A stretch of DNA of 7,800 nucleotides. Source: a virus (taxonomy: Duplodnaviria; Heunggongvirae; Uroviricota; Caudoviricetes). Where the stretch lies: IMG/VR virus record IMGVR_UViG_2671180405_000013. One strand, written 5' to 3'. Below, piece after piece: positions 1 to 6,976 of the stretch (its first letter is position 1; every line of letters starts with the position of its first letter). The position numbers and the translations under genes are program-made. The notes under the pieces are model-generated. The model saw only the letters and a program-made list of their open reading frames with translations, was not told where the DNA came from and searched no databases.

Positions 1-9
1 GTTTCTACA

Positions 10-32
10 ACCCGCCGCCGAGCGGGTTTTTT
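10..32 (+). terminator. Intrinsic terminator, tR'-like (copy 1)
   Basis: GC stem acccgc/gcgggt around loop cgccga, then TTTTTT. Window positions 1-33 match 2225-2257, which lies directly downstream of a PR'-like promoter. Confidence 0.55.
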
Positions 33-152
33 ATGACTGAAATCGCGTCAGTACAGTAAACGCGCTGGTGGCGGTGAATACCTGTCTTTCAGCTTGCTGG
101 CTTTTTCGACAAGAGTTATTGGTGTGTCACGTTAACCGGAAAAGGAAAAGAC

Positions 153-350
153 ATGCTAAAACAGCAGGATATGACAGAAACCGCCAGAGTGGTGTTTAAT
201 GAATTAAGCGTTACCGAACCGGCGACAGTCGGGGAGATAGCGCAGAATACTTACCTTTCACGCGAACGCTGCCAGTTAATACTGACCCAGCTGGTTATGG
301 CGGGTCTGGCAGACTATCAGTTCGGTTGTTACAGACGCCTTCCGCAGTGA
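153..350 (+). CDS. Small hypothetical protein, 65 aa, possible winged-helix DNA-binding fold
   Basis: ATG at 153 preceded by AAGGAAAAG Shine-Dalgarno-like sequence. The segment TVGEIAQNTYLSRERCQLILTQLVMAGLADY resembles small wHTH regulators; that is inference from the translation only. Confidence 0.5.
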   Translation: MLKQQDMTETARVVFNELSVTEPATVGEIAQNTYLSRERCQLILTQLVMAGLADYQFGCYRRLPQ

Positions 351-360
351 AGGCTTTTTT
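337..360 (+). terminator. Intrinsic terminator overlapping the stop codon of the 153-350 ORF
   Basis: Stem gccttc (337-342) / gaaggc (349-354), 6-nt loop, then TTTTTT at 355-360. Confidence 0.45.
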
Positions 361-377
361 ATTTGTGGTAAATGGGC

Positions 378-408
378 GGCTGGTGGGTGTTAGGGGCACC
401 CACCAGCC
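378..408. promoter_or_regulatory. Perfect 12-bp inverted repeat (hairpin) in the methyltransferase leader
   Basis: ggctggtgggtg (378-389) pairs perfectly with cacccaccagcc (397-408) around a 7-nt loop; no T-tract follows. A second 7-bp hairpin lies at 450-468. Confidence 0.4.
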
Positions 409-500
409 ATCTGCTCATGCGTTGGGTTCACAAGCAAACCTCAGGCCCACTGCTTTGCGCAAAAGCAGAATGAGCCTATCAGAGACAGGCTTAATGATCC

Positions 501-1559
501 ATGCTTAATGCTGTAAAAATATCCAGTTGTGAGTTAATCAACGCCGACTGCCTGGAATTTATCCGGTCGTTACCCGAAAATTCTGTTGACCTGATAGTCA
601 CGGACCCGCCGTACTTTAAAGTGAAGCCTGAGGGCTGGGATAACCAGTGGAAGGGCGACGATGATTACCTGAAGTGGCTGGACCAGTGTCTGGCGCAGTT
701 CTGGCGGGTGCTGAAACCTGCCGGAAGTCTTTACCTGTTCTGTGGTCATCGCCTGGCATCTGATATCGAAATCATGATGCGTGAACGCTTCAGTGTGCTG
801 AACCATATTATCTGGGCGAAGCCGTCCGGACGCTGGAACGGATGCAACAAGGAAAGCCTGCGGGCGTATTTCCCCGCCACAGAGCGCATTCTGTTCGCGG
901 AACATTATCAGGGGCCGTATCGTCCGAAAGATGCCGGGTATGCGGCGAAGGGCAGTGCACTGAAACAGCATGTGATGGCCCCGCTGATTTCTTACTTTCG
1001 TGATGCGCGAGCTGCCCTGGGGATAACGGCAAAACAGATTGCAGATGCCACAGGAAAGAAAAACATGGTGTCGCACTGGTTCAGTGCCGGTCAGTGGCAG
1101 TTGCCGAATGAAAGCGATTATCTGAAATTACAGGCGCTGTTTGCCCGGGTGGCAGAAGAGAAGCATCGGCGTGGTGAACTGGAAAAGCTCCACCACCAGC
1201 TGGTGGATACGTATACCTCACTGAACCGGCAGTATGCGGAGCTGCTGAGTGAATATAAACATCTGCGGCGGTATTTTGGCGTGACGGTGCAGGTGCCGTA
1301 TACCGATGTGTGGACGCATAAACCGGTGCAGTTCTATCCCGGGAAACATCCGTGCGAAAAACCGGCAGAAATGCTGCAGCAGATAATCAGCGCTAGCAGT
1401 CGTCCGGGTGACCTGATTGCAGATTTTTTCATGGGGTTGGGTTCGACAGTGAAAGCGGCACTGGCGCTCGGGCGTCGTGCAATTGGCGTTGAGCTGGAGA
1501 CTGAACGTTTTGAGCAGACGGTTCGGGAAGTACAGGATTTAGTCAGCCAGAACGGATGA
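501..1559 (+). CDS. DNA methyltransferase, beta-class amino-MTase (N6-adenine or N4-cytosine), orphan
   Basis: 352-aa ORF with motif IV DPPY near the N-terminus (LIVTDPPYF) and motif I FxGxG near the C-terminus (DFFMGLGST), the beta-class order. No restriction endonuclease gene is adjacent in the window. Confidence 0.85.
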   Translation: MLNAVKISSCELINADCLEFIRSLPENSVDLIVTDPPYFKVKPEGWDNQWKGDDDYLKWLDQCLAQFWRVLKPAGSLYLFCGHRLASDIEIMMRERFSVLNHIIWAKPSGRWNGCNKESLRAYFPATERILFAEHYQGPYRPKDAGYAAKGSALKQHVMAPLISYFRDARAALGITAKQIADATGKKNMVSHWFSAGQWQLPNESDYLKLQALFARVAEEKHRRGELEKLHHQLVDTYTSLNRQYAELLSEYKHLRRYFGVTVQVPYTDVWTHKPVQFYPGKHPCEKPAEMLQQIISASSRPGDLIADFFMGLGSTVKAALALGRRAIGVELETERFEQTVREVQDLVSQNG

Positions 1560-1599
1560 TATTGAAGAATTAATTACGCGTCGTTATTATGCGGCTCCC

Positions 1600-1675
1600 G
1601 GCCCTTTAGCTCAGTGGTGAGAGCGAGCGACTCATAATCGCCAGGTCGCTGGTTCAAATCCAGCAAGGGCCACCA
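1600..1675 (+). tRNA. ileZ: tRNA with anticodon CAU (Ile2/Met type), ileZ-like
   Basis: Hand-folded cloverleaf: acceptor ggccctt/aagggcc, U8, D stem gctc/gagc, anticodon loop ctCATaa, T-loop ttcaaat, discriminator A, encoded CCA. Confidence 0.85.
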
Positions 1676-1682
1676 TCACATA

Positions 1683-1759
1683 CCGCCATTAGCTCATCAG
1701 GAAAGAGCGCCAGCCTTCGAAGCTGGCTGCGCGGGGTTCAAGTCCCCGATGGCGGTCCA
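1683..1759 (+). tRNA. argN: tRNA-Arg, anticodon UCG, argN-like
   Basis: Acceptor ccgccat/atggcgg, D stem gctc/gagc, anticodon stem ccagc/gctgg with loop ctTCGaa, T stem cgggg/ccccg with loop ttcaagt, encoded CCA. Confidence 0.8.
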
Positions 1760-1772
1760 TTATCTGCATCAT

Positions 1773-1849
1773 GCGTTGTTAGCTCAGCCGGACAGAGCAA
1801 TTGCCTTCTAAGCAATCGGTCACTGGTTCGAATCCAGTACAACGCGCCA
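1773..1849 (+). tRNA. argO: tRNA-Arg, anticodon UCU, argO-like
   Basis: Acceptor gcgttgt/acaacgc, anticodon stem attgc/gcaat with loop ctTCTaa, T-loop ttcgaat, encoded CCA. Confidence 0.85.
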
Positions 1850-1863
1850 CACTTATTTTCCCT

Positions 1864-1889
1864 GGCTCGCTTTTGCGGGCCTTTTTTTT
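1864..1889 (+). terminator. Intrinsic terminator downstream of the tRNA cluster
   Basis: Stem ggctcgc/gcgggcc (one U-G pair), loop tttt, followed by 8 T. Confidence 0.6.
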
Positions 1890-1892
1890 AAA

Positions 1893-2152
1893 TGTCTCAC
1901 AATTCAGACGGTTGACAGTTGTCTGTTTTGCGGGGAGTTTGTTAAAAGAAACTGGCATGGTGAATCCCCCTGTGCGGAGGGGCAATCAGCGAGTAGGTAT
2001 ATGGGATAATCGCGGATTCAGGTGCTGGTACTGAATTCACCGGGAGGCACCCGGCATCATGCAATGGCACATAGCGCCACTCTCCAGCCCTCTCCGGAGG
2101 GGCTTTTCTGTGCCGGATACATCACAGTTTCTGGAACCTTAGGTACTACAGT
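1893..2152 (+). repeat. Repeat family X, copy A (terminator-capped structured element; candidate sRNA unit)
   Basis: Positions 1917-2152 are identical to 4215-4450. Contains the TCACAATTCAG motif, a TTGACA box, closing helix catggtg (1956-1962) / catcatg (2055-2061), internal hairpins, and a terminator hairpin at 2087-2108 followed by TTTTCT. Confidence 0.7.
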
Positions 2153-2158
2153 NCTAGG

Positions 2159-2186
2159 TTGATTTTTCCGGAATCTGTGGTAAATT
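2159..2186 (+). promoter_or_regulatory. PR'-like late promoter (sigma70, extended -10)
   Basis: -35 TTGATT (2159-2164), 16-bp spacer, TGg + TAAATT (2178-2186), the same -10 hexamer as phage lambda PR'. A -10-like TAACTAT lies in the initial transcribed region and terminator copy 2 sits about 45 nt downstream, matching the lambda PR' to tR' short-transcript layout. Confidence 0.5.
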
Positions 2187-2234
2187 CGTCATAACTATGG
2201 GCGTTTTATGCCTGACGTTAGAAGAGTTTCTACA

Positions 2235-2257
2235 ACCCGCCGCCGAGCGGGTTTTTT
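2235..2257 (+). terminator. Intrinsic terminator, tR'-like (copy 2)
   Basis: Same hairpin and T-tract as at 10-32. Confidence 0.55.
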
Positions 2258-2296
2258 ATTGCGGAATTAATTACGGACCGTTATTATTCTGCTCCC

Positions 2297-2372
2297 GGCC
2301 CTTTAGCTCAGTGGTGAGAGCGAGCGACTCATAATCGCCAGGTCGCTGGTTCAAATCCAGCAAGGGCCACCA
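2297..2372 (+). tRNA. ileZ: tRNA with anticodon CAU (Ile2/Met type), second copy
   Basis: Same sequence as 1600-1675 with the same cloverleaf and encoded CCA. Confidence 0.85.
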
Positions 2373-2379
2373 TCACAAA

Positions 2380-2459
2380 CCGCCATTAGCTTATCAGGAA
2401 GAGCAGACGACATGATAACAGGGTTGTTGGTGCGGGGGCGGGTCCCCGATGGCGGTCCA
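2380..2459 (+). pseudogene. Degenerate tRNA (argN remnant)
   Basis: Acceptor stem ccgccat/atggcgg and the D-arm are retained, but the anticodon arm and T-arm are replaced by sequence that does not form a cloverleaf and has no T-loop. Confidence 0.5.
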
Positions 2460-2472
2460 TTATCGGTATTCA

Positions 2473-2549
2473 GCGTTGTTAGCTCAGCCGGACAGAGCAA
2501 TTGCCTTCTAAGCAATCGGTCACTGGTTCGAATCCAGTACAGCGCGCCA
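2473..2549 (+). tRNA. argO: tRNA-Arg, anticodon UCU, second copy
   Basis: Matches 1773-1849 except one acceptor-stem change (a to g at 2542) that leaves a U-G pair; anticodon loop ctTCTaa. Confidence 0.85.
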
Positions 2550-2659
2550 TATTCATTCTTCCAGATTCCTTCCGGCAGAGCCTTATACTGAAATATACCT
2601 GGCTCAGGATATTGTTGAAAATATTTTATGTTTGTCAAAAATAAAAGTTCTGTTAAGTA

Positions 2660-3013
2660 TTGATTGAGTGTTTGTTATACGGTCTAATGGTTTTTTCAGC
2701 ATTAAATATTTATCATTCATATGGTGTGGGTAGAGTGAATATTGATGAGGCGTCGGGGTGTTTCATCCTTAGGCAGCGTATTGATATAGTCAATGCAGCA
2801 CGAGCAAAGGCCTTCAGCCGTTTGACAGTTTTGTTCTGTACTCCTGATCGTCTTTCGGGAAGAGACGTTATTATTCTGAATAGTGATGCTATACAGAGGG
2901 TTTGCGATGAGTTCATGGTTGCTAATTCAGAATTATTTGCTCTTGTTCAGGAGTACAACAGAATAGCCAGGACCTGTGGTATGGATGAACTTCGGATTAC
3001 TCATCTGGGGTAG
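2660..3013 (+). CDS. Hypothetical protein, start uncertain (TTG 2660, ATG 2687 or GTG 2735)
   Basis: 354-nt ORF downstream of the second tRNA cluster. No convincing Shine-Dalgarno before any candidate start and no family recognised from the translation. Confidence 0.35.
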   Translation: MIECLLYGLMVFSALNIYHSYGVGRVNIDEASGCFILRQRIDIVNAARAKAFSRLTVLFCTPDRLSGRDVIILNSDAIQRVCDEFMVANSELFALVQEYNRIARTCGMDELRITHLG

Positions 3014-3204
3014 ATACATATCTGGATTATCACCTGTTACGGTAAAAAGTGATTGCTTACTGTTTTTGTGAATGGCATTGCAGCAGCCGGATAATGTCAG
3101 TGCTGGCTGACGGTGTGCTGGTGGCGGGTGTGGTGGTTGTTGCTTTCCCGTTGCTGAAAAAGAAAACGCCAGACTGTTAGCCGGGTATCAGTTAGCGGGA
3201 GAAA

Positions 3205-3428
3205 TTTTTAAATACTTCACAATTCAGGCGGTTGACTGTTGTCTGGTTTGCGGGGAGTTTGTTAAAAGAAACTGGCATGGTGAATCCCCCTGTGCGGAGG
3301 GGCAATCAGCGAGTAGGTATATGGGATAATCGCGGATTCAGGTGCTGGTACTGAATTCACCGGGAGGCACCCGGCACCATGCAATGGCACATAGCGCCAC
3401 TCTCCAGCCCCTCTCCGGAGGGGCTGTT
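3205..3428 (+). repeat. Repeat family X, copy B
   Basis: Same element as copy A with point differences: TTGACT box, closing helix caccatg (perfect pairing), terminator stem gcccctc/gaggggc 7 bp with loop tccg. Confidence 0.7.
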
Positions 3429-3457
3429 TATATTGATTTTGTCAGATGTGAGTAAAC

Positions 3458-3491
3458 TCCTTATGGACTTTGTTGTTTTAGTCCATAAGGA
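3458..3491. repeat. Perfect 11-bp inverted repeat at the left edge of the AT-rich island
   Basis: tccttatggac (3458-3468), 12-nt loop, gtccataagga (3481-3491). It overlaps the last codons of the minus-strand ORF and has no T-tract on either side. Confidence 0.6.
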
Positions 3492-3796
3492 CATATTTGC
3501 AGAGTGCAACGGTTATTAAAGCATTCATTCAATACGTTATCTGTATTTGTAGGGCATTCCTGGCTATTTTTGATTGAATTCCAGAATGTTTTATTGAATG
3601 GTACTACGTTGTAAATGGTTACAGGTAGCACTTTGTTATTGAGCATGATGCCTGTGTGAGTCAGTGTAAATATACTTTCAGGAGGTAAGAAAGCATCCGA
3701 TTGATACCAGATTATTAATTTTATTTTACTCCATATGACTGAAAAAGATATTCCGCATGATGGCTGGATAACTGTATCAATCACAATCCACTTCAT
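3461..3796 (-). CDS. Hypothetical Cys/Trp/Asn-rich protein, 111 aa, island cargo
   Basis: ATG at 3796-3794 preceded by AAGGA with a 6-nt spacer. A 111-codon open frame in very AT-rich DNA is unlikely by chance. Candidate promoter on the minus strand: -10 TATACT (plus 3837-3842), -35 TTTACA (plus 3858-3863), 15-bp spacer. Confidence 0.5.
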
Positions 3797-4056
3797 TTAG
3801 TTTCCTTGTTTATGCCTTGCTGGTGATGTTCTGAAAAGTATAAATGATATTTTTGAATGTAAACCATAGAGCAGAATTATTTTTCTGATGTTGTTTATTG
3901 TTTATTTAAATGCAGGGTGGTTTATATCTCGTCTTGTAGTTTATCCATGCATATCTGCTTGATAATCAGGTTTTTATTTAAGGTATGGTTTTGTGTTTTT
4001 TCTGTATTACATGTCAGGTATTTTAAAGAATTATTTTTCAGATGGTGGAAAGAACC

Positions 4057-4083
4057 ATGGCATTTAAACACTATGATGTTGTC
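4057..4083 (+). CDS. 5' fragment of a second nanS-p-like gene, truncated by the N gap
   Basis: atggcatttaaacactatgatgttgtc encodes MAFKHYDVV, identical in protein to the start of the 5123 ORF, with two synonymous differences and a different AT-rich upstream region. Confidence 0.5.
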
Positions 4084-4214
4084 NNNNNNNNNNNNNNNNN
4101 NNNNNNNNNNNNNNNNNNNNNNNNNNNNNNNNNNNNNNNNNNNNNNNNNNNNNNNNNNNNNNNNNNNNNNNNNNNNNNNNNNNNNNNNNNNNNNNNNNNN
4201 NNNNNNNNNNNNNN
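4084..4214. other. Assembly gap (131 N)
   Basis: Uninterrupted run of n. Confidence 1.
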
Positions 4215-4450
4215 AGTTGTCTGTTTTGCGGGGAGTTTGTTAAAAGAAACTGGCATGGTGAATCCCCCTGTGCGGAGGGGCAATCAGCGAGTAGGTATAT
4301 GGGATAATCGCGGATTCAGGTGCTGGTACTGAATTCACCGGGAGGCACCCGGCATCATGCAATGGCACATAGCGCCACTCTCCAGCCCTCTCCGGAGGGG
4401 CTTTTCTGTGCCGGATACATCACAGTTTCTGGAACCTTAGGTACTACAGT
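4215..4450 (+). repeat. Repeat family X, copy C (5' end lost in the gap)
   Basis: Identical to 1917-2152. Confidence 0.75.
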
Positions 4451-4596
4451 ATCAGTCAGGGTGCTATATTTTCAGATGTGATGAAAGCCTGTCAGCAGGC
4501 AGGGCGTATCGGAAATGACCCAGTAGAGAAAACGTTGACTCAGATACCGGTGCTGAGTTACCGGGAAACCGGCATCACATGACCGCTATCCTTCCA

Positions 4597-4623
4597 GGCC
4601 CATCCGCTCCGGTGGGCCTTTTT
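4597..4623 (+). terminator. Intrinsic terminator closing a partial X-like unit (4535-4623)
   Basis: Stem ggcccatc/gg(t)gggcc of 8 bp including one U-G pair, loop cgctcc, then TTTTT. The preceding ggtgctgagttaccgggaaaccggcatca aligns with the hairpin region of repeat X. Confidence 0.55.
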
Positions 4624-4660
4624 ACTGCAGAAAACAGGTTCCCCGTTAAATGCTATGTTG

Positions 4661-4895
4661 CTCACAATTCAGTAAGTTGACAGTTGCCTGTCAGACTGGG
4701 CATTTGTTAAAAAAATTTCGCATGGTGAATCCCCCTGAGCGGAGGGGCGACTGGTGACGGTATAATCTCTGATTATCAAAACGAGAATGACGCGGGTTTA
4801 GTGGCACCGGGCTGAACTCACCGGGAGGCACCCGGCACCATGTGCATGATGATACAGATACGCGGCTTTAGCCCCTCTCCGGAGGGGTTTTCTTG
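4661..4895 (+). repeat. Repeat family X, copy D (divergent), ending about 230 nt upstream of nanS-p
   Basis: Retains TCACAATTCAG, the TTGACA box, closing helix catggtg (4721-4727) / caccatg, hairpin ccgggaggcacccgg and terminator cccctc/gagggg + TTTTCTT (4871-4895); sequence between the helices has diverged. Confidence 0.65.
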
Positions 4896-4900
4896 TGGGC

Positions 4901-4929
4901 AAAAAAAGCCCGCGCTGGGAGACGCGGGC
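4901..4929 (-). terminator. Intrinsic terminator readable on the minus strand
   Basis: On the minus strand, stem gcccgcg/cgcgggc (7 bp) with loop tctcccag is followed by TTTTTTT (plus-strand A7 at 4901-4907). Confidence 0.4.
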
Positions 4930-5122
4930 GGCAAGGAATAAACAATAAAACGTGAAGTAATATTTCAGCTGGCGAATAATACCCCATAGTAATCACTCTG
5001 CGCAACTGCGCGGTCTTTTTCGAATTGCGGGCTGTCGTCTCTCTTCTGCCATTGTCCTGTAACTTCCGGACTTCAGCCCGCTCCTTATTTTACTCACAAT
5101 ATTATCCCGGCCGGGAGGATTC

Positions 5123-6976
5123 ATGGCATTTAAACACTATGACGTGGTCAGGGCGGCATCGCCGTCAGACCTTGCGAAACGACTGACACAAAAACTGAAG
5201 GAGGGCTGGCAGCCGTTTGGTAGTCCGGTGGCCATAACCCCTTATACCCTGATGCAGGCGATTGCAGCAGAAGGTGATGTGGTCGTCAGTGGTGCAACTG
5301 AGCCGGAGTGGTACTACGTCATCGTACTGGCCGGGCAATCCAATGCCATGGCTTACGGTGAAGGTCTTCCGCTTCCGGATTCATACGATGCGCCCCATCC
5401 GCGCATTAAGCAACTGGCCCGTCGTAACACAGTGACTCCCGGTGGTGAAGTATGCGTATTTAACGACATCATTCCTGCTGACCATTGTCTGCATGATGTT
5501 CAGGATATGAGTACGATTAACCATCCCCGGGCTGACCTGAGCAAAGGGCAGTACGGCTGTGTCGGACAGGGCTTACATATTGCCAAAAAACTGCTTCCGT
5601 ATATCCCTAATAATGCGGGGATCCTGCTGGTACCATGCTGTTGTGGTGGTTCGGCATTCACCCAGGGCACGGAGGGGACATTCAGCGAGTCCACGGGGGC
5701 CAGTCAGGATTCGGCTCGCTGGGGAGTGGGTAAGCCGTTATATCAGGATCTGCTTTTCCGCACGAAGGCAGCATTGCAGAAAAACCCGAAAAACGTTTTG
5801 CTGGCGATATGCTGGATGCAGGGGGAATTCGATATGACGAATGCCAGTTACGCCCAGCAGCCAGCAGCATTTCTTGCAATGGTACAGCAGTTCCGTGCTG
5901 ACCTTGCCGGGCTGGCGGCGCAGTGTCACGGTGGAAGTCCGGCATCAGTCCCCTGGATTTGTGGCGACACGACATACGCGTGGAAACAAGAACACGGTAC
6001 GCAATATGAAGTGGTATATGGTGCATATAAAGGTAAAGAATCCCAGCAGATTTATTTTGTTCCCTTTATGACCGATGGTAGCGGAGTTAATACACCGACA
6101 AACAACCCGTCAGAAGATCCTGATATTGCCGGGTCTGGTTATTACGGTTCGGCATCCCGAACGAACAAAAACTGGGTATCATCAAATCGCCCGACGCATT
6201 TCAGCTCATGGGCGCGTCGTGGCATTATTCCCGATCGTATGGCAACTGCTATTCTGAACGTAGCCGGTCGCACCTTAGCCTTCATTAGTGGTAAGGCACC
6301 GGAAATCAAACCCTCGCCCGGCGGCGACACGCCATCGGGGCCGTCTGAAGATGCATCCATACGCACAATCTCCCTGTTGCCGACAGCCGGAGACGCTGCT
6401 GCGCAGGGCTGGAGCATTAAGAATGGCGGAGTTCAGTTGTCAGATGGTGTATTTAAGATCACCAAGCAGAGCAATAAAGCCTGGTCCCTGACGCGCCCGG
6501 TGGATGACGCAGTCTCCCTGCTGACACGGGGTGGCAGACTGAGCTGTAAGTTTCGACTGTCAGGCGCACTGACCAACAACCAGTTCGGTCTGGGAATTTA
6601 TCTGTATACCGATGTAGCGTTACCTGACGTCGTGGCGATGACCGGGACTGGTAACCCGTTCCTGATGTCGTTCTTCACCCAGACCACAGACGGCAAACTG
6701 AATCTGATGCATCACAAGAAAGCAGGAAACACAAAGTTGGGCGAGTTCGGGAATTACAGTAACGACTGGCTGACGCTGGAGCTGGTGTTCACCGCCGGCA
6801 GTGCCACGGTTACTCCGAAACTGAATGGAGTGGCTGGCCCGGCATTCCAGGTCATAAAAGACAGTCTGACACTGGGGCTGAATGCGCTGACGCTGACGGA
6901 TATTACCAAAAATGCAGCGTATGGCGTTGAGATAGAAAGTCTGGTGCTGGAGATAAATGCACCGGCATCATCATAA
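5123..6976 (+). CDS. nanS: Prophage sialate O-acetylesterase, NanS-p type (N-terminal DUF1737-like segment plus SGNH/SASA esterase domain)
   Basis: 617-aa ORF with strong Shine-Dalgarno GGGAGGA 5 nt upstream of the ATG. N-terminus MAFKHYDVV and the GQSN esterase motif (VLAGQSNAMAYGEG) match the 9-O-acetyl-sialate esterases found downstream of stx in EHEC prophages. Confidence 0.8.
   Translation: MAFKHYDVVRAASPSDLAKRLTQKLKEGWQPFGSPVAITPYTLMQAIAAEGDVVVSGATEPEWYYVIVLAGQSNAMAYGEGLPLPDSYDAPHPRIKQLARRNTVTPGGEVCVFNDIIPADHCLHDVQDMSTINHPRADLSKGQYGCVGQGLHIAKKLLPYIPNNAGILLVPCCCGGSAFTQGTEGTFSESTGASQDSARWGVGKPLYQDLLFRTKAALQKNPKNVLLAICWMQGEFDMTNASYAQQPAAFLAMVQQFRADLAGLAAQCHGGSPASVPWICGDTTYAWKQEHGTQYEVVYGAYKGKESQQIYFVPFMTDGSGVNTPTNNPSEDPDIAGSGYYGSASRTNKNWVSSNRPTHFSSWARRGIIPDRMATAILNVAGRTLAFISGKAPEIKPSPGGDTPSGPSEDASIRTISLLPTAGDAAAQGWSIKNGGVQLSDGVFKITKQSNKAWSLTRPVDDAVSLLTRGGRLSCKFRLSGALTNNQFGLGIYLYTDVALPDVVAMTGTGNPFLMSFFTQTTDGKLNLMHHKKAGNTKLGEFGNYSNDWLTLELVFTAGSATVTPKLNGVAGPAFQVIKDSLTLGLNALTLTDITKNAAYGVEIESLVLEINAPASS

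Follow-up and report, generated by a model that had tools for sequence, protein, structure and literature searches.

What does an AT-rich island encode that lies, in a lambdoid prophage, in the interval where Stx phages carry their toxin genes? We addressed this question for positions 3430-4056 of a 7,800-nucleotide stretch of DNA (the window) from a Caudoviricetes virus record (IMGVR_UViG_2671180405_000013). The GC content of this segment is 0.324 (0.345 in its coding sequence), as compared with 0.522 for the flank at 3049-3429 and 0.514-0.535 over 4215-6976; the first-pass annotation, which had been made from the letters alone, described the same drop, and the two sets of values (32% against about 52%) bear it out. 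The only substantial open reading frame (ORF) in 3430-4056 lies on the minus strand and encodes a protein of 111 amino acids containing 5 Cys, 4 Trp and 11 Asn. It is intact and has a Shine-Dalgarno sequence and a promoter of its own, in keeping with the single minus-strand gene described earlier. The product, which had gone unrecognised, can be named: the gene is iraL, a prophage-carried anti-adaptor for RssB that is already known and was characterised in 2014 (PMC4045071). The coordinates of the island and its borders are given in Table 1.

Table 1. Features of the iraL island and its borders (positions in the window).
Feature	Position	Strand	Basis or remark
pR'-tR' short late transcript module, STnc100 type (repeat copy B)	3246-3435	+	Rfam RF02076, 132.4 bits (gathering score 47); repeat families D1/D2; left border of the island
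tR' terminator hairpin closing repeat copy B	3405-3426	+	terminator-like site
iraL coding sequence, 111 aa, RssB anti-adaptor, IraM family; S74 Shigella-type allele	3461-3796	-	ORF list, NCBIfam NF007393, 8twd_A, CFT073 identity
iraL 5'UTR and promoter region (-100 to +33 of the published construct)	3797-3929	-	sequence; CFT073 identity
AT-rich spacer, iraL regulatory region to nanS-p	3930-4057	.	GC 0.296 over 3797-4056 (intergenic, upstream of iraL)
nanS-p/DUF1737 esterase gene, first 26 nt (MAFKHYDVV)	4058-4083	+	cut by the scaffold gap 4084-4214; annotated DUF1737 or SASA esterase in matching genomes

The protein matches the NCBIfam profile NF007393 (IraM) at 162 bits, against a cutoff of 121, with residues 1-110 aligned to positions 1-113 of the 114 in the profile, and its residues 1-78 match PDB chain 8twd_A, the IraM chain of 8TWD, at E=6.3e-31. 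In a comparison with iraL of Escherichia coli CFT073, 110 of 111 amino acids are identical (the exception being L74S), as are 334 of 336 nucleotides of the coding sequence (99.4%), 131 of 133 nucleotides of the promoter (98.5%; inferred -100 to +33) and 256 of 260 across the whole intergenic region. Since the paper that described iraL defines it by at least 95% identity over the coding sequence and at least 96% over the promoter and upstream region relative to CFT073 (PMC4045071), the values found here lie above both subtype thresholds. Identity to K-12 IraM is 58.6%, close to the 58.9% published for the IraL-IraM pair (PMC4045071). In CFT073 itself, we found iraL (c1429, WP_000871291.1), in the potB region, to lie within a complete lambdoid prophage. 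The exact S74 sequence is present on at least 999 contigs and is named IraM [Shigella sonnei] or MULTISPECIES [Shigella] by its sources, and RefSeq labels the ORF "anti-adapter protein IraM" in matching genomes. As to whether the ORF is under coding selection at all, a doubt raised in the first-pass annotation, comparison with K-12 iraM gave a dN/dS of 0.146 (Nei-Gojobori; dS is 1.77, which is near saturation), a signature of purifying selection that therefore marks a real coding gene.

The function of this gene is hidden in phage-oriented resources. Its only PHROGs match is phrog_4407, listed as "unknown function", and a scan of a local copy of Pfam-A at E<=0.01 and E<=10 returned no usable match for IraL and none for K-12 IraM; the sole Pfam match, to Nairovirus_NSm at E=0.056, was dismissed as chance. 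Precomputed tables assign PF11183 (PF11183.15, PmrD) to the family, yet the local Pfam-A copy had no match even at E<=10.

The arrangement of the window itself has to be read with care. One isolated "n" occurs at 2153 and a run of N at 4084-4214, and the sequence at 1917-2152 is repeated at 4215-4450 with 100% identity. Of 5426 complete E. coli genomes, none has contiguous sequence across position 2153 and 566 have 1950-2152 joined contiguously to 4451-4650 at 99.5%; 2156-4083 is collinear with the prophage of E. coli 042, beginning right after the Q stop codon. The window is therefore a mis-scaffolded draft that interleaves two lambdoid prophages, one with a methylase and an intact nanS-p and the other with iraL. 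Because of this mis-scaffolding, synteny across the window is unsafe; the identity of the island is unaffected. We considered whether the island might itself be an assembly artefact and rejected this, as positions 2154-4083 (1930 nt) are 100% identical to the complete, finished chromosome HE616528.1, which we take to be that of S. sonnei 53G, so that only the scaffold placement is artefactual. Shigella is folded into E. coli in GTDB. An earlier proposal that the island replaces about 670 bp of a parallel arrangement at 4451-5122 is correct as to length (672 bp), but the two are not alternatives in one phage, since the parallel segment belongs to a different prophage. Homology with that other prophage picks up again at about 4047 (repeat D8, 4047-4083 against 5113-5149), and the peptide encoded from the ATG at 4058 is identical to the start of a 617-aa ORF at 5123. 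The latter (5123-6976, plus strand) encodes an intact nanS-p-type esterase with DUF1737, SASA and DUF6645 domains; the nanS-p gene beside iraL is a 26-nt stub here and is truncated or cut by an IS element in CFT073, 042 and Shigella-type loci.

In the iraL prophage, the gene order is Q, tRNA-Ile(CAU), (tRNA-Arg), tRNA-Arg, an AT-rich stretch, a DUF3927 ORF, pR'/tR', iraL (minus strand), nanS-p, holin, YdfR and lysozyme, an order common to E. coli 042, CFT073, STEC 2013C-3252 and phage vB_EcoS-640R1. The STnc100 copy that borders the island on the left represents the pR'-tR' module found in lambdoid late operons. The Stx2a phage 06-3462 is arranged as Q, pR', tR', tRNAs, stx2A, stx2B, (IS) and nanS-p, so iraL does occupy the tRNA-to-nanS-p interval that holds stx2AB in that phage, as had been proposed from position alone. 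The resemblance ends there: stx is co-oriented with, and dependent on, Q-antiterminated late transcription, whereas iraL lies on the opposite strand under its own promoter, and the products are unrelated. Island DNA was matched in 1446 of the 5426 complete E. coli genomes (in 1428 over at least 80% of its length) and is absent from siblings with the same backbone (ATCC 11775; window 4215-5122), where Q is followed by a methylase, three tRNAs, pR'/tR', about 670 bp without a coding sequence, and nanS-p. With its own promoter, its deviant GC, its place between backbone genes (just downstream of tR', on the strand opposite the late operon) and its variable presence, iraL is a moron by the criteria used for lambdoid phages, which agrees with the organisation first read from the sequence.

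Taken with the published work on IraL, these data make it very probable that a lambdoid prophage of the CFT073 potB-prophage/E. coli 042/Shigella sonnei type carries the island as its iraL moron, and that the product stabilises sigma-S via RssB. The CFT073 protein, 99.1% identical to the one encoded here, co-purifies and interacts with RssB and stabilises sigma-S in log phase; log-phase sigma-S is reduced when iraL is deleted, both in CFT073 and in S. sonnei, and iraL supplied under its native promoter increases sigma-S in K-12 and makes it stable again in CFT073 (PMC4045071). In published transcript data, iraL mRNA increases when fur is mutated in CFT073 and when the temperature is shifted to 37 °C. 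A point against simple transfer of these results is that residue 74 is Ser here and Leu in the CFT073 protein that was assayed; we infer that the S74 allele behaves as CFT073 IraL in the source strain. In the mechanism we envisage, leftward transcription of iraL would start at the gene's own sigma-70 promoter and would not rely on the Q-dependent late operon, and the PmrD-like beta-barrel of the IraL N-domain would dock on the N-terminal receiver domain of RssB, sitting on its 4-5-5 face. With RssB, the adaptor that delivers sigma-S (RpoS) to ClpXP, occupied in this way, sigma-S would be spared degradation, and a lysogen would maintain elevated levels of sigma-S and of general-stress gene expression while growing exponentially.

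Structure prediction, proposed in the first-pass annotation as a check, yielded a fold that matches this family. In an AlphaFold2 model built on an alignment of 11 family members, the N-domain (residues 1-79) has a pLDDT of 72-86 and comprises seven strands (residues 2-66) and a helix (69-77), so that residues 1-78 are predicted to form a PmrD-like antiparallel beta-barrel with a C-terminal helix. The top Foldseek match is 8twd_A, IraM bound to RssB (TM 0.88, rmsd 1.5 Å, E=1.3e-7), and three PmrD structures come next. IraM is itself reported to resemble PmrD only, and its contacts with the RssB N-domain (cluster I) are I4, I6, W22, K26 and I42 (PMC10844676). All five of these residues are identical in the IraL encoded here. 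At the positions through which IraM contacts the RssB C-terminal domain (CTD) and linker (clusters II and III), C14, F18, W30, I61, Y62 and P66 are kept and four residues are changed (T13S, L75I, H63N and I64V); S74 adjoins residue 75, Leu75 being a contact with the RssB CTD in IraM. Partial change in the CTD/linker clusters would fit the published two-hybrid signal of IraL with the RssB N-domain only (PMC4045071).

Three other accounts of the gene have to be set against this one. The shared family and fold, together with the RefSeq label "IraM", could be taken to mean that the gene is a functional equivalent of K-12 IraM, that is, a PhoP/PhoQ-induced anti-adaptor of Mg2+ starvation that clamps both RssB domains, rather than one of the log-phase IraL type. 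This is very unlikely, given an identity of 58.6% to K-12 IraM as against 99.1% to IraL, and given that IraL is expressed under another condition and binds only the RssB N-domain (PMC4045071). Homology to the K-12 locus is moreover found only in the coding sequence, while promoter and flanks are unrelated. A regulatory region shared with the K-12 iraM locus had been entertained as a candidate and was rejected, the coding sequence alone aligning in the flank comparison. The gene might also be an inactive remnant that merely looks intact, left in a decayed prophage, with L74S abolishing RssB binding. Decay is visible around it, in that IS elements flank the locus in the Shigella loci (L007-L012) and DUF1737 is reduced to 57 aa there, and none of the other members among 12 aligned for the family has Ser at position 74, which adjoins contact residue 75. 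Set against this, neither the ORF nor its Shine-Dalgarno sequence or promoter is disrupted, their identity to the assayed CFT073 locus is 98.5-99.4%, the S74 allele is maintained on those 999 or more contigs, and loss of iraL affects sigma-S in an S. sonnei strain that may or may not carry S74, so we give this account very little chance of being right.

That the island is a moron for a toxin, a secreted effector or anti-phage defence, the possibility suggested at first by a position between tR' and nanS-p like that of stx2AB, by AT-richness and by the opposite strand, is the least probable of the three, its chance being close to nil. The identity of the product to IraL already refutes it: the match is strong and specific, to a family of cytoplasmic regulators with a solved complex, and we found no toxin similarity and no PADLOC family (0 defence families in PADLOC-DB at E<=0.01). 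With the anti-adaptor reading thus preferred, the locus represents a prophage in which the cargo slot of stx serves to alter how the host handles stress, through RpoS stability, rather than to deliver a toxin. As a discovery it carries little weight, since gene, product, target and phenotype were published in 2014 and the complex of the paralogue IraM was solved in 2023. What is left of interest is minor, namely an invariant, unstudied four-cysteine tail and the orientation of iraL, convergent with late transcription.

Expression signals for iraL could be located in the intergenic region. A Shine-Dalgarno sequence, AAGGA, lies at 3807-3803, 6 nt 5' of the iraL ATG, and a -10 element, TATACT, at 3842-3837 is preceded by a -35-like TTTACA at 3863-3858 with a spacer of 15 nt; both the good ribosome-binding site and the plausible sigma70 promoter of the first reading are therefore present, the latter with this short spacer. 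Our consensus promoter scanner demands a spacer of 16-18 nt, which is why it did not call the TATACT promoter, and on the minus strand it returned two hits (3904-3876 and 3745-3718, the second inside the coding sequence) where 3.0 are expected, that is, chance level. The iraL transcription start site has been mapped by 5' RACE, and complementation was performed with a "-100 to +33" construct (PMC4045071). By that text the start would lie near 3829 in the window, which would place TATACT 7 nt upstream and give a 33-nt leader. At the other end of the gene, a hairpin of 12 bp with 100% complementarity (inverted repeat I1, 3458-3491, minus strand) spans the last iraL codons and the stop codon, and minus-strand positions 3396-3500 fold at -39.2 kcal/mol (z = -6.0). 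The hairpin is probably a 3'-end stabiliser or a terminator stem. QQSP, the four-residue extension that separates IraL from IraM, falls within it.

The gene is convergent with late transcription, and only 31 nt separate its 3' hairpin from the tR' stem. Prophage induction could therefore silence iraL, which would be met head-on by Q-antiterminated late transcription; if true, such interference would couple the RpoS level of the lysogen to its lysis-lysogeny state. A further speculation concerns the C-terminal tail, in which the motif C81-P-x9-C92-x4-C97-x4-C102-P-x-G (residues 81-105; about 3482-3556 in the window, minus strand) is invariant in 12 of 12 aligned family members, down to 60% identity. 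C81, P82, C92, C97, C102, P103 and G105 are all invariant in these 12 members, and the contact residue C14 is not. The 30-residue tail was cut from the crystallised IraM and called less conserved and flexible (PMC10844676), and the words zinc and cysteine are absent from that structure paper. In our 11-sequence AlphaFold2 model the tail (residues 80-111) is disordered, with a pLDDT below 50, a result that favours neither the presence nor the absence of a metal site. One may tentatively suppose that the C-terminal 30 residues form a functional module that binds metal or senses redox state and so sets stability or activity, with iraL silencing linked to induction in addition, but we regard this combined proposal as rather unlikely. 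Neither the tail-module idea nor the transcriptional-interference idea was found in the IraL/IraM literature.

Comparison with known systems places the gene closest to iraL of CFT073, which shares the prophage gene order of the segment from Q, tRNAs and DUF3927 through pR'/tR' and iraL to nanS-p and holin. Apart from L74, the CFT073 prophage differs in having IS200 after Q and three intact tRNAs, where the segment here has two tRNAs and a degenerate one. K-12 IraM (YcgW/ElbA), encoded next to the cryptic prophage e14, shares with the IraL encoded here the family NF007393, the PmrD-like N-domain fold seen in 8TWD with RssB, an identical RssB-NTD contact cluster and an identical four-Cys tail pattern; it differs in length (107 aa against 111) and in lacking the QQSP extension and the terminal hairpin. 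Mg2+ starvation induces IraM, which makes contact with the two domains of RssB, whereas IraL acts in log phase and gives a two-hybrid signal with the N-domain only (PMC4045071, PMC10844676). PmrD (PDB 4HN7, 2JSO and 2RQX) has the same small beta-barrel and helix as IraL (TM 0.68-0.75, 14-19% identity) and also acts by binding the receiver domain of a response regulator (PMC10844676), but its target is PmrA rather than RssB, and it has no Cys-rich tail.

The IraL/IraM family is narrow, consisting of 20 clusters, all of which are named Escherichia by their sources, save that the cluster of the query also has Shigella-named members. In 2014 no overlap between the IraL and IraM classes was reported (PMC4045071). 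Four clusters (P0002, P0005, P0007 and P0008) are 88%, 75%, 69% and 65% identical to IraL, the last being from E. albertii, and bridge the gap between the two proteins; with the intermediate clusters at 88%, 75% and 69%, the two-class picture therefore now appears as a gradient.

Some further features of the window deserve mention. A second AT-rich stretch (2551-3048, GC 0.386) contains a plus-strand ORF of 108 aa at 2687-3013 (117 aa if a TTG at 2660 is used), which matches phrog_2873, of unknown function, over its full length at E=2.8e-70 and has no Pfam, NCBIfam or PADLOC match. PGAP gives it no annotation in CFT073 and 042, and it is called in phage mEp460_ev081 and in one assembly of Shigella type (L011). 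This ORF, which lies upstream of pR', may be another moron, as yet uncharacterised. Just 5' of the pR'/STnc100 copy, a 43-aa hydrophobic ORF (3049-3180, plus strand), annotated DUF3927 elsewhere, matches phrog_1470, [quoted passage not shown], at E=7.8e-13. The STnc100 family has four plus-strand copies in the window (1926-2115, 3246-3435, 4224-4413 and 4691-4900). In the prophage that has no iraL, the copies at 4224-4413 and 4691-4900 are diverged and in tandem, the latter being the best Rfam match (161 bits), with a terminator-like hairpin at about 4600-4625 between them. A minus-strand ORF of 42 aa lies wholly inside the STnc100/pR'-tR' repeat at 3262-3390, with equivalents at 1942-2070 and 4240-4368; in 042, CFT073, 2013C-3252 and ATCC 11775, PGAP lists it as a partial pseudogene ("hypothetical protein"), a call that is probably an artefact, the sequence beneath it being that of a non-coding RNA. 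ARAGORN and Rfam together place three tRNAs at 1600-1849 and two at 2297-2549. In the iraL segment, the middle tRNA of the ileZ-argN-argO cluster (2373-2472) is degenerate, with acceptor-stem ends preserved around a scrambled core.
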